This document shows positions 2,547-62,110 of a stretch of 64,000 nt of DNA, piece after piece. A program made the translations under genes and the position numbers. Each line of letters opens with the position of its first letter. The stretch's first letter is position 1. The stretch spans positions 11,470 to 75,469 of the forward strand of contig DASPMO010000039.1 of assembly GCA_035627015.1 (NCBI GenBank), written 5' to 3'. The notes under the pieces are model-generated. The model worked only from the letters and a program-made list of their open reading frames with translations, had not been told where the DNA came from and did not search any database. This stretch comes from Thermoanaerobaculia bacterium (GTDB lineage Bacteria > Acidobacteriota > Thermoanaerobaculia > Gp7-AA8).

Positions 2547-12445
<9,899 letters not shown>

Positions 12446-50973: not shown

Positions 50974-51065
50974 GGTGTGCGACCCGCCACGGAAATCCTT
51001 CCCCGGCGGGGAGTATCCCTCGGAGGCAAGAGAGTCGCAAGACTTCTCCATGGAGGAGAGCTTTC

Positions 51066-51365
51066 ATGCGTATCGCGGTACCGCACAACACGACCAAAGA
51101 GAACGCCCGCCAGAAGGTGGAGCAACGGCTGGGGCAGCTTCTGTCGCAGTTCGGCGGCCACGCCAACGACGTTTCCCATGAGTGGGTGGGCGACACGCTG
51201 CAGTTCAAGGGGAAGGCGAAGGGGCTGGCGCTGCAGGGGACGGCCGAGGTCACGGACGCGGCCATCATCATCGACGCGAAGCTGCCGCTGCTGGCGATGC
51301 CGTTCGAGGGGCGTATCCGGGAAGCAGTCCAGCGGGAAGCGGACTCGATGTTCCGGACAGCCTAG
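51066..51365 (+). CDS. Polyhydroxyalkanoate-system (PHA granule region) protein
   Basis: I.VPH....A...WVGDTLQF...GTAEV...LPLLAMPFEGRIREA pattern, 99 aa. Confidence 0.75.
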   Translation: MRIAVPHNTTKENARQKVEQRLGQLLSQFGGHANDVSHEWVGDTLQFKGKAKGLALQGTAEVTDAAIIIDAKLPLLAMPFEGRIREAVQREADSMFRTA

Positions 51366-51376
51366 GGATCGGGGCA

Positions 51377-51399
51377 AGCGGCGGGCGAAGCCCGCCGCT
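51377..51399. terminator. Hairpin between convergent genes
   Basis: AGCGGCGGGC-GAA-GCCCGCCGCT perfect 10-bp stem. Confidence 0.6.
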
Positions 51400-51406
51400 C
51401 CACTCT

Positions 51407-51625
51407 TTAGTTCACGTTGAAGATTTTCTTCAGCGCGTCGACATTCGGATCGACGAACAGGCGCCCATCGACTTCGAGCGCGGGGTCGGACCCGGCGTGG
51501 TGCGTGTACGACTTCTTGTTCTCGTCGACGCGTACGAGCTCGTGCTCGACGCGGAACTGCCGGAGAAACCCTTGGATCAAACTGGATTTATGTCTCTGTG
51601 TCCCGGGGAAGAACCTTACGGTCAT
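51407..51625 (-). CDS. Small Cys-free glutaredoxin-like hypothetical protein
   Basis: Strong RBS AAGGGAGGGG; PALEVDGRLF resembles the glutaredoxin cis-Pro loop; no CxxC. Confidence 0.6.
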   Translation of the reverse strand: MTVRFFPGTQRHKSSLIQGFLRQFRVEHELVRVDENKKSYTHHAGSDPALEVDGRLFVDPNVDALKKIFNVN

Positions 51626-51711
51626 CGCCTCCCCTCCCTTCACGTAGTAAAACGGCCCGATTGAACGGATTTGCAGACCTTAGGCCTGTTTTGTCCGCCT
51701 GTCAAATACGG

Positions 51712-51854
51712 GGTTGCTGGTTGTTGGTTGCTGGTTGGGGGTGGTTGGCGGGGAGGTGACACTTTTTGTTGTCGGTTATCGGTTGTCGGTTGCCTGCGAT
51801 GCCTGGAGTTCAGGCCATGCGGTGCAGACAACTGACAACTGACAACCGACAACC
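51712..51854. repeat. Heptamer-armed inverted-repeat element A
   Basis: (GGTTGYT)n at 51712-51737; (GGTTRTC)n at 51767-51792 facing (GACAACY)x4 at 51827-51854 around a 34-nt spacer. Confidence 0.85.
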
Positions 51855-51865
51855 ACCCGGCAACC

Positions 51866-53716
51866 TCACGCCACGACCGCTTCCCGGTACTGGATCTCGT
51901 ACAGCCGCCGATACAGCCCGCCGAGGGCCATCAGCTCCTCGTGCGTTCCCCGCTCCCGGATCTCCCCGTGGTGGAAGACGAGGATGGTGTCGGCGGAGCG
52001 GATGGTGGAGAGGCGGTGGGCGATGACGATGGAGGTGCGCCCCTGGAGGAGGGTCTGGATGGCGTCCTGGATGAGCAGCTCCGTCTCGGTGTCGATCGAC
52101 GAGGTGGCCTCGTCGAGGATGAGCACCGGCGGGTCGAAGGCAAGCGCCCGCGCAAACGAGAGGAGCTGCTTCTCCCCCACCGACAGCCCCGCCCCCCGCT
52201 CCTTGACCGCCGATGCATACCCCTCGGGCAGCCGGGCGATGAAGCGGTCGGCCTGCACGCGCACGGCGGCGGTGCGGATCCGCTCCTCGCCGAGGTCCGG
52301 GTCGCCGAGGGAGATGTTGTCGGCGATCGTGCCGGTGAAGAGGAAAAAGTCCTGCTGGACGATGGCGAAGAGGCGCCGCAGCGACTGGAGCGAGTACTCC
52401 CGCAGCGGGACGCCGTTGAGCAGGATCTCGCCGCGCTGGATCTCGTAGAAGCGCAGCAGCAGCGCGGTCACGGTGGTCTTCCCCGCGCCGGTGTGCCCGA
52501 CCAGCGCCACGCGCGCCCCCCGCTCGACGCGGAAGGAGACGTTCTTCAGCACCCAGTCCGGCTCGTTATAGGCGAACCAGACGTTGCGGAACTCGATCGA
52601 CTGCAGCTCGCGGATCTCGCGCTTCCCCGAATCGGGGATCTGCACCGGTGTGTCGAGCAGCTTGAACACGCGCTCGCTCGCGGCCATGGCCGCCTGGAGG
52701 ATGTTGTACTTTTCCGAAAGGTCGGAGATCGGCTGGTAGAAACGCTGCGAGTACTGGAAGAAGGCGATCAGTGCGCCGATGGAGAGCGTCCCCTGGATGA
52801 CCTTCCCGCCGCCGTACCAGACGATGAGTGCCAGTCCCACGGTCTCGATCAGCTCGATCATCGGGTAGAAGACGGCGTAGTAGAAGATCGAGTCGATGTT
52901 CGCGTCGCGGTGGCGCTTGTTCAACTGGTCGAACTTCTCCCCCTCCTGCTCTTCCCGGTTGAAGAGCTGCACCGTGGACATGCCGGAGATGTGCTCCTGC
53001 AGGAAGGCGTTGATGGCGGCGATGCGCGCCCGCACCTGCCGGTAGGTGACGCGCGCGCCGCGGCGGAACCAGATGGAGACGAGGATGATGAACGGGGTGA
53101 TGGAGAAGAGCACCAGCGCCATGCGCCAGTTCATCCAGAACAGCACGCCGACGATGCCCGCCAGCACGAAGAGATCGCCGAAGATGGCCACGAAGCCGGC
53201 CGTGAACATCTCGTTCAGCGCGTCGACGTCGGTGGTGACGCGGGTCATCAGGCGCCCGACCGGGTTGCGGTCGAAGAACTGCACGTCGAGCTTCTGCAGG
53301 TGCGCGAAGATCTGCTTGCGCAGGTCGTACATGATGTACTGGCCCATGAGGTTCATCAGGACCATCTGCGTGTAGAGCACGACGAAGCCGCCGCAGAGCG
53401 CGAAGAGATAGAGCCCGGCCGCGATGTTGATGCCGGTGACGGGGTCGAGGACGATCCCGTTCGCCGCCAGCCATTCCGCGACGCGCGCGCTCACGCCGAT
53501 CGGCGCGTTCCCCTGCGGCCTGACGAAGAGGTCGATGCCGATGGCGGTGATGGCCGGCCCGGCCAGCTCGAGGATCGACGAGATGATGACCAGGAAGACC
53601 GAGAACGCGGCGCGGACGCGGTACGGCCGGAGGTACCGCAGCAGCCGCCGCGTGAGATGCGCGTCGAAGGCCTTGGCGCCTTCGTCTTCGTGCTTTTCGA
53701 TGACCGTGTCACTCAT
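51866..53716 (-). CDS. ABC transporter permease/ATPase (MdlB-like half transporter)
   Basis: TMD, FFDRNPVGRLMTR, GHTGAGKTT, LSVGEKQ, LILDEATS, IAHRLST. Confidence 0.93.
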   Translation of the reverse strand: MSDTVIEKHEDEGAKAFDAHLTRRLLRYLRPYRVRAAFSVFLVIISSILELAGPAITAIGIDLFVRPQGNAPIGVSARVAEWLAANGIVLDPVTGINIAAGLYLFALCGGFVVLYTQMVLMNLMGQYIMYDLRKQIFAHLQKLDVQFFDRNPVGRLMTRVTTDVDALNEMFTAGFVAIFGDLFVLAGIVGVLFWMNWRMALVLFSITPFIILVSIWFRRGARVTYRQVRARIAAINAFLQEHISGMSTVQLFNREEQEGEKFDQLNKRHRDANIDSIFYYAVFYPMIELIETVGLALIVWYGGGKVIQGTLSIGALIAFFQYSQRFYQPISDLSEKYNILQAAMAASERVFKLLDTPVQIPDSGKREIRELQSIEFRNVWFAYNEPDWVLKNVSFRVERGARVALVGHTGAGKTTVTALLLRFYEIQRGEILLNGVPLREYSLQSLRRLFAIVQQDFFLFTGTIADNISLGDPDLGEERIRTAAVRVQADRFIARLPEGYASAVKERGAGLSVGEKQLLSFARALAFDPPVLILDEATSSIDTETELLIQDAIQTLLQGRTSIVIAHRLSTIRSADTILVFHHGEIRERGTHEELMALGGLYRRLYEIQYREAVVA

Positions 53717-53728
53717 GGTTCATTCGGT

Positions 53729-53814
53729 GTTGCTGGTTGCTGGTTCCTGGTTCGTTGCGGTGCTGCGCCTGAAACCCAGGCATCGCAATGAACCAGCAAC
53801 CAGTAACCAGCAAC
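53729..53814. repeat. Heptamer-armed inverted-repeat element B
   Basis: (GTTGCTG)n 53729-53753 facing (CAGYAAC)n 53790-53814; spacer hairpin GCCTGAAACCCAGGC. Confidence 0.85.
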
Positions 53815-53829
53815 GAGCGCCGCGGGCGC

Positions 53830-55563
53830 TCACGCGATGTCCTCCAGCTCATCCTCGATGGTCTGCCGCCGGTACAGGTCGGCGTAGTAGCCGCCGCGCT
53901 CCACGAGGGTGTCGTGCGTGCCGCGCTCGACGATGCGTCCTTCGTCCAGCACGACGATGTGATCGGCGTCTTTCACCGAGGAGACGCGATGCGAGACGAT
54001 CAGCACGGTCCTCCCCTTCCGGATGCTCCGCAGCGCCTGCAGGATCTTCTCCTCGGTGTGGGTATCGACGGCGCTCAGCGAGTCGTCGAGGATCAGGATC
54101 AGCGGATCGCGGACGAGGGCGCGGGCGATGGCGGTGCGCTGCTTCTGCCCTCCCGACAGGGTGATACCGCGCTCGCCGATGACGGTCTTGATCCCCTGCG
54201 GGAAGCCGGCCACGTCGGTCGAGAGGCCGGCCTGCTGCGCCGACTGCTCGACTGCCTCATCGTCCGCCGCGGCGTTGCCGAAGCGGATGTTCTCGGCGAT
54301 CGACTCGGAGAAGAGGAAGGTCTCCTGCGGCACCATGCCGATCCACTCGCGCAACTGTTTGACCGGGATGGCCTCGATGGGGCGCCCGTTGAGAAAGATC
54401 GTCCCGGGCGGCGGCTCGAACGAATGCGTGAGCAGCGAGAGCAGCGTCGACTTGCCGCTGCCGGTGCGGCCGACGATGCCCACTGTCTCGCCGTGGCGGA
54501 TGCTCAGGTTGATGTCGCGCAGCACGGGACGCGTGTCGTACGCGAACGTGAGGTCGCGGATCTCGAGGTTCCCCTCCGGCACCATCTCCACCCGCCCGGC
54601 GACGTCGGCCGCCGGCGCGACGCTCCACACTTCGTGCAGCCGGGCCATGGCGGCCATGCCGCGCTGGAAGAGGTTGATCACCCAGCCGAGGGCGATGAGC
54701 GGCCAGATCATCCGGCCGAGGTAGAACTGAAAGGCCACGAAGGCGCCGAGGGACATCGTGCCGGCCAGGATCTTCCGGCTGCCGAGGAAGAAGACGAAGA
54801 CGAACATCAGCCCGATGAGCACGTGCAGGGCGGGATAGAACGTGGCGGTGAGGCGGATCAGCGAGCGGTTGCGCTCCACGTAGTCGCGGTTCATCCGCTT
54901 GAAGAGGTCGATCTCGTTCTCCTCGCGCGTGAACGCGCGCACGACGCGCACGCCGGAGAGGTTCTCCTGCACGCGCGCGGAGATCTCGCCGAAGGCGTCC
55001 TGCACCGCGCGGGTGCGGTTGTGGATGCGCCGCCCGAAGATGGTGACCATCCCCGCCACGAGCGGCACGGCCGCGAGCGACAGCAGCGCCATGGAGGCCT
55101 CGGTGCGCAGCATCATCGCGAACGCGCCGGCGACCACGAGCAGCGACGACAGCGAGTGCATGACCGCCGGGCCGATGAGCATGCGCACGTTGGCCAAGTC
55201 GTTCGTAGCCCGCGACATCAGGTCGCCCGTGCGCTGCTCCTGGTAGAACCGCAGCGGAAGCTTCTGCAGGTGCCTGTAGAAGTCGTTCCGCATGTCGTAT
55301 TCCATGTGGCGCGACACGCCGATGATGATCGAGCGCTGCAGGTAGAGGAACACCCCCTCCATGATCGAGGCGCCGATGAGCAGCAGCCCGTAGCGCAGCA
55401 GCGTCGCCCGCGTGAACCCGCTCCCCAGCTCGTTCACCGCGCTCCCGACGATGTACGGCTTGGCCAGCGAGAAGGCGGCCGAGCCGATCACACACACCGC
55501 GCCGATGGTCAGTCGTGCTTTGTAGGTGCCGAAGTAGTGGAGGAGGCGGCGGAGCGGGGTCAT
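53830..55563 (-). CDS. ABC transporter permease/ATPase (MdlA-like half transporter)
   Basis: GDLMSRATND, GRTGSGKST, LSGGQKQR, LILDDSLSAVD, VSHR. Confidence 0.93.
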   Translation of the reverse strand: MTPLRRLLHYFGTYKARLTIGAVCVIGSAAFSLAKPYIVGSAVNELGSGFTRATLLRYGLLLIGASIMEGVFLYLQRSIIIGVSRHMEYDMRNDFYRHLQKLPLRFYQEQRTGDLMSRATNDLANVRMLIGPAVMHSLSSLLVVAGAFAMMLRTEASMALLSLAAVPLVAGMVTIFGRRIHNRTRAVQDAFGEISARVQENLSGVRVVRAFTREENEIDLFKRMNRDYVERNRSLIRLTATFYPALHVLIGLMFVFVFFLGSRKILAGTMSLGAFVAFQFYLGRMIWPLIALGWVINLFQRGMAAMARLHEVWSVAPAADVAGRVEMVPEGNLEIRDLTFAYDTRPVLRDINLSIRHGETVGIVGRTGSGKSTLLSLLTHSFEPPPGTIFLNGRPIEAIPVKQLREWIGMVPQETFLFSESIAENIRFGNAAADDEAVEQSAQQAGLSTDVAGFPQGIKTVIGERGITLSGGQKQRTAIARALVRDPLILILDDSLSAVDTHTEEKILQALRSIRKGRTVLIVSHRVSSVKDADHIVVLDEGRIVERGTHDTLVERGGYYADLYRRQTIEDELEDIA

Positions 55564-55580
55564 ACGTGGCGCATTCTATC

Positions 55581-55690
55581 GAGCGATGAGCGATGAGAGA
55601 TGAGCGATGAGCAGAGGGCGCCGGTTCATCGCTCATCGTTCATCGCTCATCGTTCATCGCTCATCGCTCATCGTTCATCGTTCATCGCTC
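55581..55690. repeat. Heptamer-armed inverted-repeat element C
   Basis: (GAGCGAT)x4.5 at 55581-55612 facing (YTCATCG)x9 at 55625-55687, 12-nt spacer. Confidence 0.9.
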
Positions 55691-56059
55691 CAACGCCTCC
55701 TTCAGCGGCAGCCTCTTCATCTCCTGCAGCGTGATCCGCAGCACCGATCCAAGCGTGAAGCCGGTCGGAAAGCAGTGCGGGATGCGCAGGCCGGCGCCCG
55801 AGAGCTCGAGGAAATCGAGGGGCGGCTTGCGGCGCGCGAGCACGTACACGAGCTTGCGCGGGAGGTCTTCCCGGTCGTCGACGTTGAGGTGCAGCGGCTG
55901 GAGGTAGTAGCCGAAGTGCATGTCGCGCAGCGCGGGCATTCCTCCCGCGAACTCGGGGAGCGTGACGCTGAGGCTGAGCGAGCCGAAGATCCAGTTCTCC
56001 TGCGCGAACTCGCCGCGCCAGAAATCCTCTTCTTCCCCGGTCAGGTGCTCCAGCCGCAT
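55682..56059 (-). CDS. Hypothetical protein
   Basis: ATG overlaps thioredoxin stop (TGATG); 125 aa of globular-looking sequence; stop lies in heptamer arm. Confidence 0.6.
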   Translation of the reverse strand: MRLEHLTGEEEDFWRGEFAQENWIFGSLSLSVTLPEFAGGMPALRDMHFGYYLQPLHLNVDDREDLPRKLVYVLARRKPPLDFLELSGAGLRIPHCFPTGFTLGSVLRITLQEMKRLPLKEALER

Positions 56060-56532
56060 CAGCGGGCGCGCTCCATGATCCGCTCGAACTCGGCGCGCCC
56101 GCGAAAACCTTCCATCCGCTGGCGCTCCGCCCCGGCGCTGGCTGCGAAGACGACGGTCGGGAAGCCGCGCACGTTGTAAGTCCGCTGCAGCTCCGCGACC
56201 TCCGGCGGATTGCTCCCCTCCTCCCGCTGCCGGTCGACGACCCGCACGGGGATGAAGCGCTCGTTGATGGCCCTGGCGATGGCGGGGTCCTGGAAGACTT
56301 CGCCGTCCAGCATGTGACACGGCCCGCACCAGTCGGCGGTGAAGTCGAAGAGGAGCGGCCTGCCGGTCGCGGCGGCGAGGCGCAGCCCTTCCTTCGGCGT
56401 GTGCCAGCGCACGAGGGAGCTCTTCGCCGGCGCGTCACTCTTCGTCGTCTGATGGAGGACGCGCGCGCCGAGGAGGAGCGCGGCCAGGATGAACAGCGCG
56501 ATTGGGACATAGCGCTGGCTAGTCCGCACCAT
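56059..56532 (-). CDS. Membrane-anchored thioredoxin-family protein
   Basis: N-terminal TM/signal, LFDFTADWCGPC, VRGFPTVVF. Confidence 0.92.
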   Translation of the reverse strand: MVRTSQRYVPIALFILAALLLGARVLHQTTKSDAPAKSSLVRWHTPKEGLRLAAATGRPLLFDFTADWCGPCHMLDGEVFQDPAIARAINERFIPVRVVDRQREEGSNPPEVAELQRTYNVRGFPTVVFAASAGAERQRMEGFRGRAEFERIMERAR

Positions 56533-57250
56533 ACGGCACCTCCCTGCGGCGGAACGCGAGACACGCCAGCAGCAGCGCGATCGCGGCGTTGGACAGCACC
56601 ATCAGCGTCCAGCCGGTGTCGAAGCGCGGCGGCACCGGCAGGTCGGGGTAGAGATTGCGGTCGATGACCATCAGCCCGCGCTCGATCCCGGTGTGCGCCT
56701 TGAGGAAGCGGCCGACGGCGTTGTCCGTCTGGCGGATGAACGCGAAGACGACGCTGCTCAGGCCCAGCCCGATCAACCCCACGAGGTAAATGCCGATGTT
56801 GAAGTACGCGCGCGTGAGACTGCCGAGGAGCGCCAGGAACGAGACCGTGAGGATCGTGTCCGTCGCGCAGTTGAGGAGCGCCGTGCCGATGGCGCGCGCC
56901 TGCAGTCCGCTGTCGCCCCACAGCGCGCGGCCGGCCAGCTCACACAGCGCGGCCACGATTCCCGCGAGCCAGACCACGAGCACCACGCCGGTCACGCGCG
57001 ACACGAGATAAACGGCGCGGTTCACCGGCTTGACGAGGATGAGCTGCAGCGTCCCCGACGAGAACTCCGGACCGACCACGCCACAGCCGGTGACGAACGC
57101 GAGCAGCACCAGCAGCCCGGGCCACGCTGCTGCGGGCCTGTCGAATACCGAGGTAGCGAACGCCGCCAGGACGAGCAACGCCAGGAACGTGAGGTAGCCG
57201 ATGTGCGTCACGTGCCGCCGCACGGTCTCCAGGATCACGACCGGACTCAC
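56519..57250 (-). CDS. ABC-2 transporter permease (GTG start)
   Basis: EFSSGTLQLILVKPVNR..YLVSR EAA-like motif, multiple TM helices. Confidence 0.85.
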   Translation of the reverse strand: MSPVVILETVRRHVTHIGYLTFLALLVLAAFATSVFDRPAAAWPGLLVLLAFVTGCGVVGPEFSSGTLQLILVKPVNRAVYLVSRVTGVVLVVWLAGIVAALCELAGRALWGDSGLQARAIGTALLNCATDTILTVSFLALLGSLTRAYFNIGIYLVGLIGLGLSSVVFAFIRQTDNAVGRFLKAHTGIERGLMVIDRNLYPDLPVPPRFDTGWTLMVLSNAAIALLLACLAFRRREVPYGAD

Positions 57251-58107
57251 GCCGCACCTCGGAAGATGCTCTCGAGATCGGTGGTGTGCTTTCTCACGTC
57301 GACGATTCCGGCGCCGCCGTCCACCAGCTCTTTCACCAGCCGAGCGATGTCCTGCTCGCTCTCCACGGTGGCGATGAGGACGTTGTCGCGCAGCTGAGCG
57401 TTGGGGATGTGCTGGACGTCGAAGCCCGGCAGCATGGTGATGGCCACGACGATGCGGTCCACCTGGCGGAGCGTTTCCGCGCGCTCGATGACGCCGCGGT
57501 GGAGGAAGAGCACGCGGTCGCAGACTTTCTCGATCTCCGCGAGCTGGTGGGAGTTGAGGAGCACCGCCGCGCCGCGCGCCTTCTGCTCGGCGATCAGGTC
57601 GCGCACGAGCAGCACGCCGTTCGGGTCGAGCCCCGAGGTCGGCTCGTCGAGGAAGAGATAGTCGGGCTCGTGGATCAGCGCCTGGCTCATGCCGATGCGC
57701 TGGAGCATGCCGCGCGAGTACTGCGAGAGCCGCTTGTCCGCCGCGCCGGCCAGGCCGATGCGCTCGAGCATGGCCCGGCTCTTGGCGTCGGCGTCTTTGA
57801 CCTCGGCCAGGCGGGCCATGTAGCGGAGGAAGTTCCACCCTGTGGCGCCGCGGTCGAAGTTCATCCGCTCCGGCACGAACCCGGTGCGGCGCCGGACGTC
57901 GAGATCGTCGTTCGGCCGGCCGGCGATGGCGATCTCCCCCGCGTTCGGCCGCAGGAAGCCGAGGAGACACGACATGAGGGTCGTCTTCCCGGCCCCGTTC
58001 GGCCCGATGAGGCCGACCACCTCGCCCGGGGCGATGTCGAGATCGATGCCCCGCAGCACTTCGTGAGCACCAAACGCCTTGCGCAGCGCACGGACCCGGA
58101 CGCTCAT
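57247..58107 (-). CDS. ABC transporter ATP-binding protein
   Basis: GPNGAGKTT, YSRGMLQR, LFLDEPTSGLDP, NSHQL. Confidence 0.95.
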   Translation of the reverse strand: MSVRVRALRKAFGAHEVLRGIDLDIAPGEVVGLIGPNGAGKTTLMSCLLGFLRPNAGEIAIAGRPNDDLDVRRRTGFVPERMNFDRGATGWNFLRYMARLAEVKDADAKSRAMLERIGLAGAADKRLSQYSRGMLQRIGMSQALIHEPDYLFLDEPTSGLDPNGVLLVRDLIAEQKARGAAVLLNSHQLAEIEKVCDRVLFLHRGVIERAETLRQVDRIVVAITMLPGFDVQHIPNAQLRDNVLIATVESEQDIARLVKELVDGGAGIVDVRKHTTDLESIFRGAA

Positions 58108-58346
58108 GCCTTGCGCGCGCGCAGCCCCTCGACGATCTCGTCGAACTTCGCCTGATGGAAGGCGTCGATCCGCCCCTGCACCCCCGCCTCGTCGGTCACT
58201 TCTTCGGTGTACACCTTTTTCAACGCCCCCCCGAGATAGACCTTCGTCTCGATGCGCGGATGCGGCCGCGGGAAAAACTCGGTCTGGATGGTGAGCTTCT
58301 TGGCGCCGACGTCGATGGCGTCGAGGCGGCCCATGGGGTCTTGCAT
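58104..58346 (-). CDS. Small hypothetical protein
   Basis: 80 aa, stop overlaps next ATG, IQTE....PHPRIETKVYLGGA...H...V pattern. Confidence 0.6.
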   Translation of the reverse strand: MQDPMGRLDAIDVGAKKLTIQTEFFPRPHPRIETKVYLGGALKKVYTEEVTDEAGVQGRIDAFHQAKFDEIVEGLRARKA

Positions 58347-58363
58347 GCGGGTGTCAGTCTAAC

Positions 58364-58903
58364 GTTGTTGCTGGTTGCTGTGTTGCTGGTTCGTGGTGGT
58401 GTTTCGTAGAATAGACACTCCACACCGTCCGCACGATTCGTTCGCGCGTTGATGCTCCCTCCGCACTGCAACGATGCTATGCCGAAAAAGACATTCGAGG
58501 ATCTTCGTGCGTTTCAGCGTGCGCTCGATCTCATGGTCGACGTGTACACCGCGACCGAGCGGTTTCCGAAGACGGAGCTGTATGGATTGACATCGCAGCT
58601 CCGCCGGGCAGCATGCTCGGTCGTGAGCAACATCGCCGAGGGTCAGGGGCGGCTGACGTACGGCGAATGGCGACAGCGTCTCAGCGACGCACGCGGGTCG
58701 CTCTACGAAGTACAAGCCCAAGTCATCGCTGCGCACAAACTCCAGTTTCTGGGAAGTGGGGCCGTAGAACATCTGAAGAAACGGGCCCGACTGGCCGCGG
58801 TGGAACTGCAAGGCCTCATCACCTGGGTTCAAAAGCGTGAGCTCGCCGCGAAACGCCCCTCAGGCGTAACACCGCCACGAACCAGCCACCAACAACCAGC
58901 AAC
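58364..58903. mobile_element. Heptamer-armed inverted-repeat element D enclosing a four-helix-bundle gene
   Basis: Left arm GTTGTTGCTGGTTGCTG-TGTTGCTGGTTCGTGGTGGTGT; right arm ACACCGCCACGAACCAGC-CACC-AACAACCAGCAAC; same heptamer as element B. Mobility is inferred, not shown. Confidence 0.6.
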
Positions 58904-58916
58904 ATCCCCGGGGTAG
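58479..58916 (+). CDS. Four-helix-bundle protein (23S rRNA intervening-sequence protein family)
   Basis: [11 protein letters not shown]...VY..[31 protein letters not shown]......ARGS..E..AQ. Confidence 0.93.
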   Translation: [145 protein letters not shown]

Positions 58917-58970
58917 AATGGCCGCTCCACACCGCGTTCCTCACGCGTCTCCTCGCACCATGAAACATTC

Positions 58971-59353
58971 ATGGCCAAGACATTCGAGGATCTTCGTGCG
59001 TTCAGTGTGCACTCGATCTGATGGTGGACGTGTATACGGTGACGGACCGTTTTCCGAAGACGGAGCTGCAGGGACTCACCGCCCAGCTTCGCCGTGCATC
59101 CTGTGTGGTGGTCAGCAAGATCGCGGAGGGACAAGGGCGGCTGACGTACGGCGAGTGGCGGCAACAGCTCAGCGAAGCGCGGGGGTCGCTGCACGAAGTG
59201 CGGGCCCAGGTCATCGCCGCGCACAAGCTGCAGTTTCTGGAGCTGAGCGTCGCCGACTATCTGCAGAAGCGCGCACGTCTGGTGGCCGTGGAGTTGCACG
59301 GCCTGATCGAGTGTGTCCGCCGGCGGATTGCGGATCGCCGGCCGGACCCGTAG
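58971..59353 (+). pseudogene. Second four-helix-bundle gene, frameshifted near codon 11
   Basis: gcgttcagtgtgcactc versus gcgtttcagcgtgcgctc in copy 1 (1-nt deletion); downstream frame is highly similar to copy 1. Confidence 0.85.
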
Positions 59354-59362
59354 TGTATTCCG

Positions 59363-62110
59363 ATGCCGAAAGCGTATGTCTCCTCCACGTTCGACGATCT
59401 GCGCGAGCATCGGGCGATCGTGCAGGTCGTGCTGAGGCGGTTCGGGTACGAGGTCGAGGCGATGGAGTCTTACGTGGCCGCGGACGAGCGTCCGCTGGAC
59501 CGCTGTCTGGCCGACGTCTCCGCGTGCGATCTCTACGTCGGGATCTTCGCCTGGCGCTATGGGTTCGTTCCGGACGGCGAGACGCGCTCGATCACCGAGT
59601 TGGAATACCAGCGCGCGGTGGAGACGAAGAAGCCGCGGATTCTGTTTGTCGTCGACGAGGACGCCGCCTGGTCGCCGAAGCTGATTGATCGCGACCGGTC
59701 GCGCATCGAGGCGTTTCACGAGCGCGTGAAGCAGGACCGGATGGTCAGCAAGTTCTCCACGCACGACACGTTGGAAGCACGGCTGTCGGCCGCGCTGGAG
59801 CAACGGGGGGCGAAGCTGCTGGAGGCACCGGGCATCGACATGGAAGCGTACGCGCGCTTCCTGCGGCGCCAATACAACGTGCTCGATCTCGATGCGCTGA
59901 TGGACCCGGAGCGCGACGAGCTCCTGGCGTTGCGCGTCCAGTCCGTGTTCGTCGAGCAGAACGCGAAGGAAGACTCGCCTCCGCTCGAGCTGCCGAAGGA
60001 GACGTGGGAGCGCCTCGTCTCACGCGCCGACGTGCACTCCGACGACCTGCCGCAAGGAATCACGGCGGAGATGCTGGCCGAGCTCAAAAGCTCCTATGGC
60101 AGCAAGCCCTCGCGGCCGGTGATGAAGATCCTCGCCAACCCCAACCATCGCTGCGCGATCATCGTCGGCGATCCGGGGGCCGGGAAATCGACCCTACTCC
60201 GGTACATCGCGCTGTCGCTCTTGGAAGCTACTCCCAATCCCCGGCTGCAGCCGGCACTCGCCGGACGGGTGCCGTTTCTCGTCGACCTGAAGAGCTACAC
60301 CGGTCTTCGGACACAAAACCGCTGCGACACGTTCTTCAGCTACTTCGACGTGCTGGCGAAGCAGGAGGGGTGTCCCGTGACCGGCGACACACTGCGGGAG
60401 CATCTCCGATCCGGCAGGCCCGCGGTGGTCATGTTCGACGGCATCGACGAGATCTTCGATCCGGCCGAGCAGGAGGCAGTGACGAGGCAGATCATCGCGC
60501 TGGCCGATGCATATTCGGAGACGAGAATCATCGTCACCAGCCGCATCATCGGCTATCGCCGGACGCTGCTCACGAACGCGGGGTTCCGCCATTTCACCCT
60601 GCAGGACCTGAACGAGCGACAGGTCACCGCGTTCGTGCGGCAGTGGTACACGCTCACCCTCGGCGAGCGGGCCGGGGAAACGGAAGCTCGCATCGCGCGG
60701 CTCCGCCAATCGTTCGCGGCCTCGCCGTCCATCCGCCAGCTGGCCGGGAACCCGATGCTGCTGACCATCATGGTCATCATCGGCAAGCATCAGGAGCTCC
60801 CCCGCGAGCGCTGGAGGCTCTACAACCGCGCCGCGAGTGTGCTCGTGCAGCACTGGGACGTGAGAAAGCATCTCGCCGAGAAGCAGCTCGGCAACGACCT
60901 GATGGACGAGGAGGACAAGAAGGAGTTGCTGCGCCGCCTCGCCTACGCCATGCAGGCCGGCGATGGTGGCCTGACCGGCAACTACATCCACGCCGAGGAG
61001 CTACAGGCGATGTTCGAAGGTTACCTCCGCGAGCGCTACAGCTTCGATCCGGCACGCGCCAAGATCACCGCGCGGGAGATCATCACGCAGTTCCGCACGC
61101 GCAACTTCATCCTCTCCTCCTACGGCGCGAATCTGTACGGGTTCGTGCACAGGGCGTTCCTCGAATTCTTCTGCGCCGACTCGATCCGGATGCGGTTCGA
61201 GAAGACGAAGGAGCTTCCACTCGACGCACTAAGAACGATTTTCGATACCTGTTGGAAGAAAGAAGAGTGGCACGAAGTGCTGCGCCTTGTTTGCGGAATG
61301 ATCGGGGAGGAATTCGCCGGAGAGATGATCGATCACCTGCGGTCGCTTGGCCGGAAAGAAAACATCCAACTGGCAGTGGAGTGCCTGCAGGAGGTGCGTC
61401 GGCCTGAACGGCTGCAGGCAATAGGACGCGATCTGCTCGTGGCCCTCCTCGACGGAGTATGGGAGGGTGCGTGGTGGGTAATGTGGTCGGCCCTTGACAC
61501 TGCCGCGCAAATCGGAGTGCGGTGGCCGGGACGCGAAGTGCTCGTGGAGTGGTTGTCGCGCGTCACGGACGCGCCAGGAAACGGATCTCTTGAGTTCGAT
61601 CTCGGGCGCACTGTAGCCGCTCTGGGGCATGACCTGCCTGATGTGCGAGAAAGTATCCTTCGTCGGCTCGATAGTCGCGGCGGTCTGTTAGAAGTAACGC
61701 TCACTGCACTCGCGGTGGGTTGGCCAGACCCGACCACCGCAACCATTCTGATCGACCCCGGGCGGCGTCGAGATCCTGAATTCAGGGTTCGCGCACTGCC
61801 CTTGGCCGCGCGCCATCTCAAAGCGATACCCGGAGTGATCGACCAACTGTTTTCACAACCAGATCTGCCCGATTGGGTGGTCGTACATACCTTCCCGGAA
61901 GACTCCCGAGCGTTGCCGCACCTCCTGCGCGAGGTCAACGACAGTTCATCAACTTCGCGAGCAATGGCAGTACATGGGTTGCAGCATCACCTTACCGCGC
62001 CAGAAGTTCAGCGCACGCTGCTGCGTATCGCGCAGAACGGCCGGGAACCGCTGATTGGAAAAATAGCGGCTGACATCCTCGAGGAGGCCCGCCCTACCGC
62101 TCCCGCCTGA
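59363..62110 (+). CDS. DUF4062 - NACHT NTPase - helical repeat protein (bacterial STAND/NLR-like)
   Basis: YVSSTFDDLREHR...CLADVSACDLYVGIFAWRYG (DUF4062); VGDPGAGKSTLL, VMFDGIDE, IIVTSR, NPMLLT, FVHRAFLEFF. Confidence 0.9.
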   Translation: MPKAYVSSTFDDLREHRAIVQVVLRRFGYEVEAMESYVAADERPLDRCLADVSACDLYVGIFAWRYGFVPDGETRSITELEYQRAVETKKPRILFVVDEDAAWSPKLIDRDRSRIEAFHERVKQDRMVSKFSTHDTLEARLSAALEQRGAKLLEAPGIDMEAYARFLRRQYNVLDLDALMDPERDELLALRVQSVFVEQNAKEDSPPLELPKETWERLVSRADVHSDDLPQGITAEMLAELKSSYGSKPSRPVMKILANPNHRCAIIVGDPGAGKSTLLRYIALSLLEATPNPRLQPALAGRVPFLVDLKSYTGLRTQNRCDTFFSYFDVLAKQEGCPVTGDTLREHLRSGRPAVVMFDGIDEIFDPAEQEAVTRQIIALADAYSETRIIVTSRIIGYRRTLLTNAGFRHFTLQDLNERQVTAFVRQWYTLTLGERAGETEARIARLRQSFAASPSIRQLAGNPMLLTIMVIIGKHQELPRERWRLYNRAASVLVQHWDVRKHLAEKQLGNDLMDEEDKKELLRRLAYAMQAGDGGLTGNYIHAEELQAMFEGYLRERYSFDPARAKITAREIITQFRTRNFILSSYGANLYGFVHRAFLEFFCADSIRMRFEKTKELPLDALRTIFDTCWKKEEWHEVLRLVCGMIGEEFAGEMIDHLRSLGRKENIQLAVECLQEVRRPERLQAIGRDLLVALLDGVWEGAWWVMWSALDTAAQIGVRWPGREVLVEWLSRVTDAPGNGSLEFDLGRTVAALGHDLPDVRESILRRLDSRGGLLEVTLTALAVGWPDPTTATILIDPGRRRDPEFRVRALPLAARHLKAIPGVIDQLFSQPDLPDWVVVHTFPEDSRALPHLLREVNDSSSTSRAMAVHGLQHHLTAPEVQRTLLRIAQNGREPLIGKIAADILEEARPTAPA

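Follow-up and report, generated by a model that had tools for sequence, protein, structure and literature searches.

The region of interest lies at positions 51712-58903 of a 64-kb acidobacterial stretch of DNA (hereafter, the window), where an inverted-repeat search and Tandem Repeats Finder together reveal a series of hairpins whose arms are built from tandem 7-mers. The inverted-repeat search placed these arms at 51768-51806/51815-51853 (39 nt, 79%), 53729-53763/53780-53814 (35 nt, 89%), 55581-55612/55631-55690 (32 nt, 91%, in several registers) and 58364-58406/58865-58904 (19-25 nt, 74-89%, 458-487 nt apart), confirming the 4 loci of the initial annotation. Nine period-7 arrays of 3.4-9.3 units were found between 51712 and 58903, with the units GTTGTCG/GACAACY, GTTGCTG/CAGYAAC and GAGCGAT/YTCATCG, as the initial annotation had named them; elsewhere in the window only 4 short or indel-bearing period-7 rows were found, and arrays of 3 or more clean units occur only in this region. 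Three of the loci are gene-less hairpins, which we describe in the direction of the host genes on the minus strand. Hairpin 1 (51767-51854), with GTTGTCG/GTTATCG units facing GACAACY units, starts 12 nt after the stop codon of ABC exporter B (51866-51868, minus strand) and lies between that stop and the conserved promoter of the next gene. Hairpin 2 (53729-53814), with GTTGCTG units facing CAGYAAC units, fills the 113-nt gap between the ABC-A stop and the ABC-B start. Hairpin 3 (55581-55690) has asymmetric arms, GAGCGAT x4.6 facing TCATCGY x9.3, and its first units on the minus strand provide the TGA stop of the 126-aa gene; it is shared with relative L162 and absent in L161. As single strands, these 3 short elements fold at -52 to -67 kcal/mol (z = -5.9 to -9.4), with 0 of 200 shuffles as stable, on both strands (hairpin 1: -52/-53 kcal/mol, z -7.2; hairpin 2: z -7.5/-9.4; hairpin 3: z -5.9/-8.2). 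In addition, an unpaired GGTTGCT array of 3.7 units (51712-51737), whose unit is the same as in the arms of the fourth locus, constitutes a fifth array. It matches the right arm of that locus in blastn (24 of 24-nt stretch at 96%), and a short complementary stretch, GGTTGCCGGGTGGTTG, lies on the other side of hairpin 1. This array is therefore probably the AC-rich-side remnant arm of an older element into which hairpin 1 is nested.

The fourth locus is an inverted pair of arms that encloses a four-helix-bundle (4HB) protein gene, an arrangement that we refer to as a cassette. Its left (5') arm (58364-58406, plus strand) consists of GTTGCTG units followed by a non-repeat inner stem, GGTTCGTGGTGGTGTTTCG, and its right (3') arm (58865-58904, plus strand) of the inner stem CGTAACACCGCCACGAACC followed by AACCAGC units. 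In orthologues L161-L163 the number of units varies, and the inner stem changes together with its partner. The gene itself (58479-58916, plus strand; 145 aa from the ATG at 58479, with the ORF open from 58449) was assigned by profile searches to PF05635 (E = 5e-28) and TIGR02436 (E = 2e-26), with a match to PDB 2GSC (1e-17). Its last ~12 codons are the translated right arm, and the tails of homologues are likewise translated heptamers. The gene is under purifying selection, with dN/dS of 0.05-0.12 against orthologues, and the arms are conserved at dS 0.6-2.4. Between the left arm and the 4HB start lies a conserved box, TAGAAT-GGC..CTCCACAC..CGTCCGCACGA (58407-58445, plus strand), which is nearly invariant among the window, L161, L162 and L163 although synonymous sites of the gene are saturated; we infer that it is probably the promoter -10 and 5' leader. 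A similar -10-like TAGAAT box (55573-55578, minus strand) directly follows hairpin 3, 13 nt before the ABC-A start codon, where TAGAATGCGCCAC resembles the cassette box TAGAATGGCGCCTCCACAC. TAGAAT occurs only 5 times in the window on both strands, and 3 of these occurrences abut heptamer arms, although a promoter role is inferred. A second, tandem 4HB copy (58914-59353, plus strand; PF05635 E = 8e-20) follows, with its own TAGAAT box (58914-58919) overlapping the stop of copy 1. It is 77% identical in DNA to copy 1, has a 1-nt deletion in a T-run near 59003 that shifts the frame of the first ~13 codons, and has no arm after it; the gene caller's product (P0104) starts later.

To determine whether this design is a peculiarity of the window, we compared the flanks of 87 4HB genes from Acidobacteriota, Planctomycetota, Chloroflexota, Lentisphaeria, Bacteroidota, Gammaproteobacteria and others. 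Of these, 65 (75%) have a flank inverted-repeat score of 14 or more, against only 6 of 1251 control intervals (0.5%), and the arm period is 7 in 47 of 54. Conversely, 128 period-7 arrays have a reverse-complement partner, against 5 in a reverse-only control; the spacers between partners are bimodal, and 40 of 51 long spacers hold a 4HB gene. Such cassettes are also carried by the isolates Trichormus variabilis (plasmid C), Nevskia soli, Riemerella, Calothrix and Gemmatirosa, while the 4HB ORF of Azospirillum lipoferum lies inside 23S rRNA, as an intervening sequence (IVS), and has heptamer-phased inverted arms. The stems have a median length of 26-30 bp and are 91% Watson-Crick paired.

We next asked whether these elements are fixed, and found that they come and go between close relatives. 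At the orthologous ABC-A/ABC-B junctions, about 30 relatives, including the nearest ones, have overlapping stop/start codons, whereas about 35 carry a 70-340 nt insert, about 23 of these with detectable heptamer arrays, each lineage with its own heptamer and with at least 8 different heptamers in total. A ~94% identical relative in one of the runs (X3) lacks hairpin 2, and a Nevskia cassette (9941-10398) is replaced by 10 nt in related strains. Hairpin 2 is multicopy in soil metagenomes: depth is 170-660 on its arms against 6-10 on its flanks, and many contigs match the whole element, with similarity ending at 53728/53729 and 53814 and with differing flanks. Two diverged copies of another cargo sit in the same arms in L001, one of the sequences compared, and arrays near a cassette share its heptamer in 23% of cases, against 4.6% by chance. 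The gene-less forms appear to derive from the full form, as 44 nt of hairpin 2, including the non-repeat inner stem, are 86-89% identical to the cassette arm, and hairpin 3 keeps the cassette's TAGAAT box. An alternative is that the hairpins arise in place, with polymerase slippage expanding a local heptamer in non-coding spacers, where a 7-nt repeat cannot break a reading frame, and a fold-back template switch copying the array in inverted form, so that there is no transposition and 4HB genes merely prefer to land in such hairpins. Indeed, heptanucleotide repeats are the most over-represented long simple repeats in many bacteria (cited in PMC4679880 and PMC4692102), unit numbers differ between orthologues and between the 2 arms, the same junction is filled with many different heptamers, and no target-site duplication was found. 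However, hairpin 2 occurs in many contigs with the same loop, sharp ends and different flanks; hairpins 1 and 2 are colinear and share a loop core although they lie at different sites and in opposite orientation; arms and inner stem are shared between the cassette and hairpin 2; and the Nevskia empty site has no arms at all, so the arms travel with the gene. We therefore consider an origin in place unlikely.

As the hairpins lie exactly between cistrons and form very stable stems on the transcribed strand, they could also be host regulatory RNA structures of this operon, that is, mRNA-stabilizing or processing stem-loops that set the relative expression of neighboring cistrons, like REP stem-loops at the 3' ends of E. 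coli genes. In line with this, some clades keep a hairpin with the same heptamer at the same junction, and several junctions of one operon tend to be filled together (odds ratio 8.9, p = 0.03, not corrected for relatedness). On the other hand, the hairpins are absent in the closest relatives, where the genes are translationally coupled; copies are found at unrelated sites; and the same design flanks a selfish-looking gene in unrelated contexts and phyla. The hairpins match no Rfam family, and none of the 4 elements is among the terminator-like sites, which require a G+C-rich stem followed directly by a run of U: there is no U-tail, and on the host strand hairpin 1 is followed by AAAAAG. Moreover, stem mismatches show no G·U preference on the transcribed strand, with 45 G·U against 65 A·C on the 4HB sense strand and 23 against 22 on the host-operon strand. 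Selection on an RNA stem is therefore not visible, whereas the mismatch spectrum is the same on both strands, as expected of a DNA process such as an origin in place. A host regulatory role is thus doubtful as the primary explanation, although it can hold as a secondary, co-opted effect.

A third alternative is that the arms are operator arrays, with each 4HB paralogue binding its own heptamer as double- or single-stranded DNA to regulate itself and neighboring genes, and the gene-less hairpins being targets of a 4HB regulon. Each cassette has its own heptamer, and heptamer identity decays with protein divergence, from 86% shared at 80% identity or more to 5% at 50-65%. In addition, units have a constant 3-4 nt core at 7-nt phase, TAGAAT boxes abut the arms, nearby arrays share the cassette's heptamer 5 times more often than chance, and Avd, a homologue of the 4HB family (PMC10053308), has relatives that probably bind nucleic acid. 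However, the decay of heptamer identity is equally explained by common descent, 77% of nearby arrays use other heptamers, and to our knowledge the family has no DNA-binding motif. This reading explains neither why the arms must be complementary nor the insertion into rRNA, and we regard it as the least likely.

Taken together, we favor, with moderate confidence, the explanation that the window holds 1 full member and 4 gene-less or remnant members of a widespread, apparently unnamed family of small dispersed, IVS-type cassettes without a transposase. In the full form, a promoter-poor PF05635 (Avd-like, 'S23p') gene lies between 2 inverted arrays of tandem heptamers, usually with a short unique inner stem, while in the gene-less form the 2 arms are closed on a short loop. 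The cassettes sit at gene boundaries, between a stop codon and the next start, in either orientation, and also in the helices of 23S rRNA; some are multicopy with exact ends at the outer ends of the arms. The arms change sequence quickly but stay complementary, with all units and both arms changing together. This agrees with the initial annotation, which had proposed a non-transposase mobile or RNA-processing element resembling 23S IVS stems and linked to 4HB genes: the link to 4HB genes is strong, the cassette carries only the 4HB gene, the elements are not fixed and they are not simple terminators, but the RNA-processing half of the proposal is not shown, and selection on an RNA stem is not visible in the stem mismatches. 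We infer that the ~30-bp perfect stem forms in any transcript that reads through and that, as in the Coxiella, Leptospira and Salmonella IVSs, RNase III would cut it, so that the insert would be removed or separated from its neighbors after transcription and insertion inside an operon or an rRNA would be tolerated. Support for read-through is weak, as the bias towards co-orientation with the upstream gene is only 40:22, from a heuristic gene call, and in the window the cassette seems to have its own promoter inside the left arm, in which case its own mRNA would lack the 5' arm. We further infer that complementarity is kept at the DNA level, by slippage within arrays and hairpin-templated correction between arms, which would explain why the 2 strands show the same mismatch spectrum, and that spread uses single-strand hairpin DNA and an enzyme supplied in trans; the 4HB protein may bind the arms. 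Neither a target-site duplication, in the filled and empty junctions compared, nor a mobilizing enzyme was found, and the cassette has stayed at one site through dS ~1.5, which is not the behavior of a highly active element.

Among known systems, the 23S rRNA IVSs carrying an S23p/PF05635 ORF (Leptospira, Coxiella burnetii, Xanthomonas, Brucella, and Azospirillum lipoferum 4B, which we analyzed here) share with the cassette the protein family in the loop and terminal inverted repeats that form a 20-30 bp stem. Their arms hold tandem heptamers, CAGAGGA/CGGATGA in Azospirillum and, in Coxiella, GACAGAT, at which RNase III cuts the stem and whose copy number varies between strains (PMC4990558); both kinds of element have been regarded as selfish and possibly once mobile. 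However, the elements in the window lie between protein-coding genes, with no rRNA match in 51000-60000 and with ABC transporter, thioredoxin-like and NACHT genes as neighbors; 3 of them have no ORF; RNase III cutting is shown for IVSs and only inferred here; and the 4HB gene of the window is intact and under purifying selection, whereas the Coxiella ORF is reported to be decaying. Heptanucleotide simple repeats, such as the STRR of heterocystous cyanobacteria (CCCCAGT, TTGGTCA, CAACAGT), the Xanthomonas GGGAATC repeats and the Beggiatoaceae TAACTGA repeats, are likewise tandem 7-mers in intergenic DNA. Xanthomonas has 70-75 convergent (inverted) pairs per genome (PMC4692102), STRR occur inside the RNase P RNA gene (Vioque 1997), and cyanobacterial plasmid 4HB genes are flanked by such repeats, while TAACTGA repeats are mostly direct. 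In the papers that we read, these repeats were treated as simple repeats, G-quadruplex motifs or translational signals, and no link to PF05635 genes or to IVSs was drawn in the literature that we could search. Avd, the accessory protein of diversity-generating retroelements, has a homologous four-helix-bundle fold (PMC10053308), but the hits of the cassette protein to bAvd and to the Avd model are weak and below the family cutoffs (NF033474, 21.6 bits against 80; PF22296, 17.2 against 40). The cassette contains no reverse transcriptase and no template or variable repeat, and none of the genes scanned against Pfam/NCBIfam between 51.4 and 62.1 kb, which do not cover that whole span, is a reverse transcriptase. 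REP/REPIN elements and their RAYT transposases are also short extragenic multicopy hairpins at gene ends, with a family-specific repeat, a single gene flanked by the same repeats in inverted orientation and no target-site duplication, but here the flanked gene is a four-helix bundle rather than an IS200/IS605-type HUH tyrosine transposase, and the arms are tandem heptamers of fast-changing sequence rather than a conserved 20-35 nt palindrome. The gene-less form stands to the full form as a REPIN or MITE does to its parent, and MITEs are also multicopy, able to fold as hairpins and keep the ends of a longer element, although in our case there is no transposase-bearing parent, the arms are internally repetitive and no target-site duplication was seen. 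Finally, integron gene cassettes with attC sites also join a promoter-poor single gene to an imperfect inverted repeat whose structure, not its sequence, is conserved and which acts as a single-strand hairpin. Here, no integrase was seen next to the cassettes, without a search of the whole window; the arms bracket the gene instead of following it, and the cassettes are scattered at gene junctions rather than lined up at an attI site.

The window has 68% G+C, and its best protein matches are to Thermoanaerobaculia (Acidobacteriota) from soil. Between 51.4 and 58.35 kb, all real genes lie on the minus strand and comprise, in order, an 80-aa gene, an ABC ATPase, an ABC-2 permease, a thioredoxin-like gene, a 126-aa gene, ABC exporter A (ABC-A, 55563-53830), ABC exporter B (ABC-B, 53716-51866), and a 78-aa gene. 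The last of these has its own TTGACA-N17-TAAGGT promoter-like site (51677-51706, minus strand), which is conserved in most of the ten orthologous loci inspected (two have a divergent -10); hairpins always lie between the ABC-B stop and this site. The initial annotation had listed four loci in which tandem 7-mers face their reverse complement, and these are present exactly as described: a search for inverted repeats gave arms of 39, 35, 32, and 19-25 nt, while Tandem Repeats Finder gave nine period-7 arrays of 3.4-9.3 units, all between 51712 and 58903, with nothing comparable in the rest of the 64 kb. The three short elements (hairpins 1 to 3) fold at -52 to -67 kcal/mol, with z-scores of -5.9 to -9.4 on either strand, and the long-spaced pair of arms encloses a PF05635/TIGR02436 four-helix-bundle (4HB) gene (58479-58916), whose closest solved relative is XCC0516 (2GSC). 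We rejected the idea that the hairpins are simple terminators, as they have no T-tail and sit inside an operon between subunits of one exporter. Comparison to known RNA families returned only sub-threshold hits to microRNA precursors, meaning generic long hairpins.

Three features can be added to this list. First, an unpaired GGTTGCT array at 51712-51737 looks like the remnant arm of an older element around hairpin 1. Second, a tandem copy of the 4HB gene (58914-59353, plus strand) has a 1-nt deletion in a T-run near 59003, which puts its first ~13 codons out of frame, and no arm follows it. Third, TAGAAT boxes directly abut three of the heptamer arms (55573-55578 on the minus strand, and 58407-58412 and 58914-58919 on the plus strand), although this hexamer occurs only five times in the 64 kb on both strands. 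The box after hairpin 3 (TAGAATGCGCCAC) resembles the cassette box (TAGAATGGCGCCTCCACAC) and lies 13 nt before the ABC-A start, while the TAG stop of the first 4HB copy (58914-58916) is part of the TAGAAT box of the second. Ten nucleotides after the second copy starts a 915-aa NACHT/STAND-type NTPase gene (59363-62110, plus strand), which gives weak P-loop hits to the antiphage EruA and Sll1717 models and is absent at this position in the relatives L161 and L162 (two loci that carry close 4HB homologs).

To determine whether this design is a property of the protein family rather than of this window, we fetched 80 loci encoding relatives of the 4HB protein (39-67% identity) from one-genome-per-species contigs of Acidobacteriota, Planctomycetota, Chloroflexota, Lentisphaeria, Hydrogenedentota, Bacteroidota, Gammaproteobacteria, Saccharibacteria, and others; most of the loci analyzed in this work are metagenome contigs. 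A profile search identified 87 4HB genes with both flanks available, of which 65 (75%) have complementary flanks with a score of 14 or more, against only 6 of 1251 same-length control intervals in the same loci (0.5%). Clear 7-nt periodicity in the arm was found for 51 genes, and among well-scored arms the best period is 7 in 47 of 54 and 8 in five. Each locus has its own heptamer (GTTGTCG, AGTGGTC, TTAGCTC, AGTTTCG, AGTAGYC, CAGTCGT, AGCTCTC, and others). A weak shared consensus exists (R-T-N-G-T-C-R, at 3.9 bits against 2.84 ± 0.07), but it is inflated by related loci and does not define the family. In several junction hairpins (loci L143, L147, L110, L116, L127, and L111), the units look like a constant 3-4 nt core at 7-nt phase plus 3-4 variable bases, such as GAGT+NNN and AGT+NNNN, with GGTT+RYY in the window. 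Periods other than 7 also occur: 9-10 nt in a hairpin at the ABC-B/78-aa gene junction of locus L081 (GGGTTCCTCG / CCGAGGTACT), and 8 nt around 4HB genes in Gemmatirosa and three MAGs (L168, L050, L057, and L006).

Conversely, the 2.06 Mb of fetched DNA holds 482 period-7 arrays, of which 128 have a reverse-complement partner within 1.2 kb, against 5 in a reverse-only control. The spacers are bimodal, with 58 of 100 nt or less and 46 of 301-700 nt, and 40 of the 51 pairs with a spacer over 300 nt enclose a 4HB gene. In the Thermoanaerobaculia homologs, the C-terminal tails (“TSNQQPAT,” “TTDN”) are simply the translated right arm, so that the elements add repeat-encoded tails to annotated proteins. 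We also considered whether the heptamers are built to give a stop codon in all three frames in both orientations, but rejected this as a design rule, as only 42 of 121 units hold a stop triplet, against 33 ± 4 in shuffles, and 136 of 246 arms close no frame. The same architecture is found in finished genomes of isolates, namely Trichormus variabilis ATCC 29413 plasmid C (TCAGAAT x5 / TTCTGAC x3, inside a trb operon), Calothrix brevissima (AGGGTGT), Riemerella anatipestifer (GGTTYAA), Nevskia soli (AGTGRYT), and Gemmatirosa (an octamer). Its appearance in these genomes and in independent assemblies led us to reject an assembly artifact. In plasmids alpha and gamma of Nostoc sp. PCC 7120, identical 4HB genes keep only the downstream CTTCTGC/CCTCTGC arm, the upstream arm being replaced by an ISL3-family transposase gene, that is, a cassette disrupted by an IS.

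We next tested the link to the intervening sequences (IVSs) of 23S rRNA, whose stems the initial annotation had thought the hairpins to resemble. One plasmid hit, in Azospirillum lipoferum 4B AZO_p2, lies inside a 23S rRNA gene (Rfam LSU, 2056 bits), and its 4HB ORF is bracketed by the heptamers CAGAGGA, CGGATGA, CAGAGGA, and CGGAGGA, in that order, and the complement. The published IVS of Coxiella burnetii has a 28-bp terminal stem, three or four GACAGAT repeats before the S23p ORF, with copy number varying among strains, and an RNase III cut at the first repeat (PMC4990558). CPR bacteria carry this ORF at several sites in 16S and 23S rRNA genes (bioRxiv 10.1101/2024.02.27.582315). The cassette of the window is therefore the same kind of object as an ORF-bearing IVS, but it lives between protein genes.

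To find out how stable the elements are, we fetched 80 metagenome loci orthologous to the ABC-exporter operon (ABC-B 73-85% identical, synteny conserved). At the ABC-A/ABC-B junction, about 30 loci have overlapping stop and start codons (TAATG, GTGA), while about 35 have a 70-340 nt insert, in about 23 of which the scan found period-7 arrays, usually paired as a hairpin; these counts are not corrected for relatedness. The elements split translationally coupled gene pairs. At least eight different heptamers occur at this junction, and the 126-aa/ABC-A junction behaves the same way. On a tree of ABC-B, the states are patchy: the nearest relatives of the window (L081, L084, and L087) are empty where the window has hairpin 2, and L081 (126-aa/ABC-A gap of -3) and L161 lack hairpin 3. 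In one run (X3), a ~94% identical relative joins 53692 to 53827 without hairpin 2. In locus L101 (6159-6500), the ABC-A/ABC-B junction is duplicated in tandem: hairpin, first 48 nt of ABC-B, last ~80 nt of ABC-A, then the hairpin again. None of the 80 loci has a 4HB gene, whereas the three closest 4HB homologs (80-92%; L161-L163) sit at the same place upstream of the operon, so the cassette is an older insertion shared by a sub-clade. In Nevskia soli, the cassette occupies exactly the space between the stop of one gene (9940) and the ATG of the next (10399). As contigs from three runs of related strains carry 10 nt (GAGAAAGGCC) in its place, the arms travel with the gene, although assembled contigs show presence better than absence. 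This cassette is not a 23S IVS, as no rRNA was found there and it lies between two protein genes.

The elements are also dispersed repeats with exact ends. In four soil metagenomes, the arms of hairpin 2 (53729-53814) have 20-60 times the depth of the flanks, and many contigs match the whole 86 nt including the loop. Their similarity ends at 53728/53729 and 53814, and beyond those points they disagree with one another. The source sample shows the same pattern for the other arms, and the assembly graph breaks there. The elements are moreover tied to each other. The first 44 nt of hairpin 2, including 19 nt of non-repeat inner stem, are 86-89% identical to the arm of the cassette. Hairpin 1 (51767-51854, plus strand) and hairpin 2 (minus strand) are colinear homologs over 86 nt that share the loop core TGCGATGCCTGG.GTTTCAGGC and even a G-to-A variant in unit 2, yet every heptamer differs TC to CT, and GA to AG in the other arm. 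In other words, all units have changed together while a unit-specific variant was kept. In locus L001, two diverged copies (2090-2512 and 9073-9476) of another, ORF-less cargo of ~360 nt sit in GTTGTCG arms at different sites. This cargo, also found at L149 1657-2079, is a long nested palindrome (sub-hairpins GCTGCCGTAGGCAGC and GGCCCGGCCTTYAGGCCGGGT) without Rfam match; L001 2060-2540 and L149 are the same genomic site. Finally, arrays within 10 kb of a cassette share its heptamer (one change or less) in 23% of cases, against 4.6 ± 2.7% for mismatched loci.

Several properties bear on mechanism. The median stem length is 30 bp for cassettes and 26.5 bp for operon hairpins, with 91% of pairs being Watson-Crick. 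Selection at the RNA level, seen as G·U tolerance on the transcribed strand, was not found: mismatches are not biased towards G·U on the 4HB sense strand (45 G·U, 65 A·C) or on the host-operon strand (23, 22). Complementarity therefore seems to be kept by a process that treats both strands alike, which we infer to be DNA-level slippage and hairpin-templated correction. A formal covariation analysis of orthologous hairpins was abandoned, as the arrays differ by whole units and cannot be aligned reliably. The arm met first is GT-rich on both strands (46 of 65, p = 0.001; 25 of 30, p = 0.0003). When the upstream neighbor is co-directional (40 against 22, from a heuristic gene call), its stop codon usually lies within -16 to +11 nt of the outer end of the arm; for gene-less hairpins, a GC3/ORF heuristic for gene orientation gave obvious mis-calls and was not used. 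Most cassettes leave 30 nt or less between arm and start codon, which is too little for a promoter, so they must be read through from the host gene. Two soil metatranscriptome reads identical to Nevskia soli (L065 9867-10158, run X25) span the upstream gene end, the left arm, and the 4HB start, which suggests read-through transcription, but two reads are too few and DNA carry-over cannot be excluded. The cassette of the window differs in having a conserved TAGAAT box, with a TTGCTG supplied by the last heptamer 17-18 nt upstream. The 4HB gene is under strong purifying selection (dN/dS 0.05-0.12), and the arms and the box are conserved although dS is 0.6-2.4. Heptamer identity falls with protein divergence, being shared in 86% of cases at 80% identity or more, 29% at 65-80%, and 5% at 50-65%.

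Taken together, these data describe a family of transposase-less cassettes, in which a 4HB gene lies between inverted heptamer arrays, and which has gene-less derivatives. The cassettes insert at gene boundaries and in rRNA helices, and they are variably present and partly multicopy; their arms evolve in concert, and the gene is selected. Considering that dsRNA of about two helical turns is an established RNase III substrate and that cutting is shown for the Coxiella IVS, we infer that any read-through transcript folds the arms into a stem long enough for RNase III, and that the insert is then cut out or cut off after transcription. This would explain how it can sit inside an rRNA, or between translationally coupled genes, without killing the host. 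Spread probably goes through single-strand hairpin DNA with a factor in trans. The 4HB protein, homologous to the nucleic-acid-binding Avd, may bind the arms, although this last step is speculation. No experiment or RNA data address processing or mobility directly. We hold the overall reading with moderate confidence: we are highly confident of membership in the family and consider dispersal likely, while the RNase III step remains tentative.

A more far-reaching possibility, which we consider unlikely but which our data do not exclude, is that the PF05635 protein, a pentameric Avd-like ring, is the specificity factor of a hairpin-DNA or hairpin-RNA parasite or symbiont. It would bind its own 7-nt-phased arms and promote their copying to new gene junctions, as a non-enzymatic counterpart of the RAYT-REPIN partnership. 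In that case, the cyanobacterial STRR repeats, the Xanthomonas inverted GGGAATC repeats, the heptamer hairpins at gene junctions in soil bacteria, and the ORF-bearing IVSs of 23S rRNA would all be products of one system, and the 7-nt period and the GT-rich 5' arm would reflect the footprint of the bound protein.

The “S23p” 4HB proteins (a very large family, with about 7,900 of 8,000 candidates scoring in one search) and the IVSs that fragment 23S rRNA, the striking excess of heptanucleotide repeats in many bacterial genomes (STRR in cyanobacteria, GGGAATC in Xanthomonas), and long hairpins at gene junctions have been described separately and left unexplained for decades. The evidence presented here ties them into one kind of element with a simple, searchable signature, namely a gene or loop between inverted 7-mer arrays. 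In the literature searched, we found no paper that links heptamer arrays to PF05635 genes or describes such cassettes outside rRNA, although most subscription journals fell outside these searches and a prior description cannot be excluded. Among the closest known systems is the ORF-bearing 23S IVS, which has the same design at a different address. The REPIN-RAYT partnership follows the same logic with a different gene and different arms. Also close are the heptanucleotide repeats of cyanobacteria, Xanthomonas, and Beggiatoaceae; Xanthomonas is reported to have 70-75 inverted heptamer pairs per genome, interpreted there as G-quadruplex motifs (PMC4692102).
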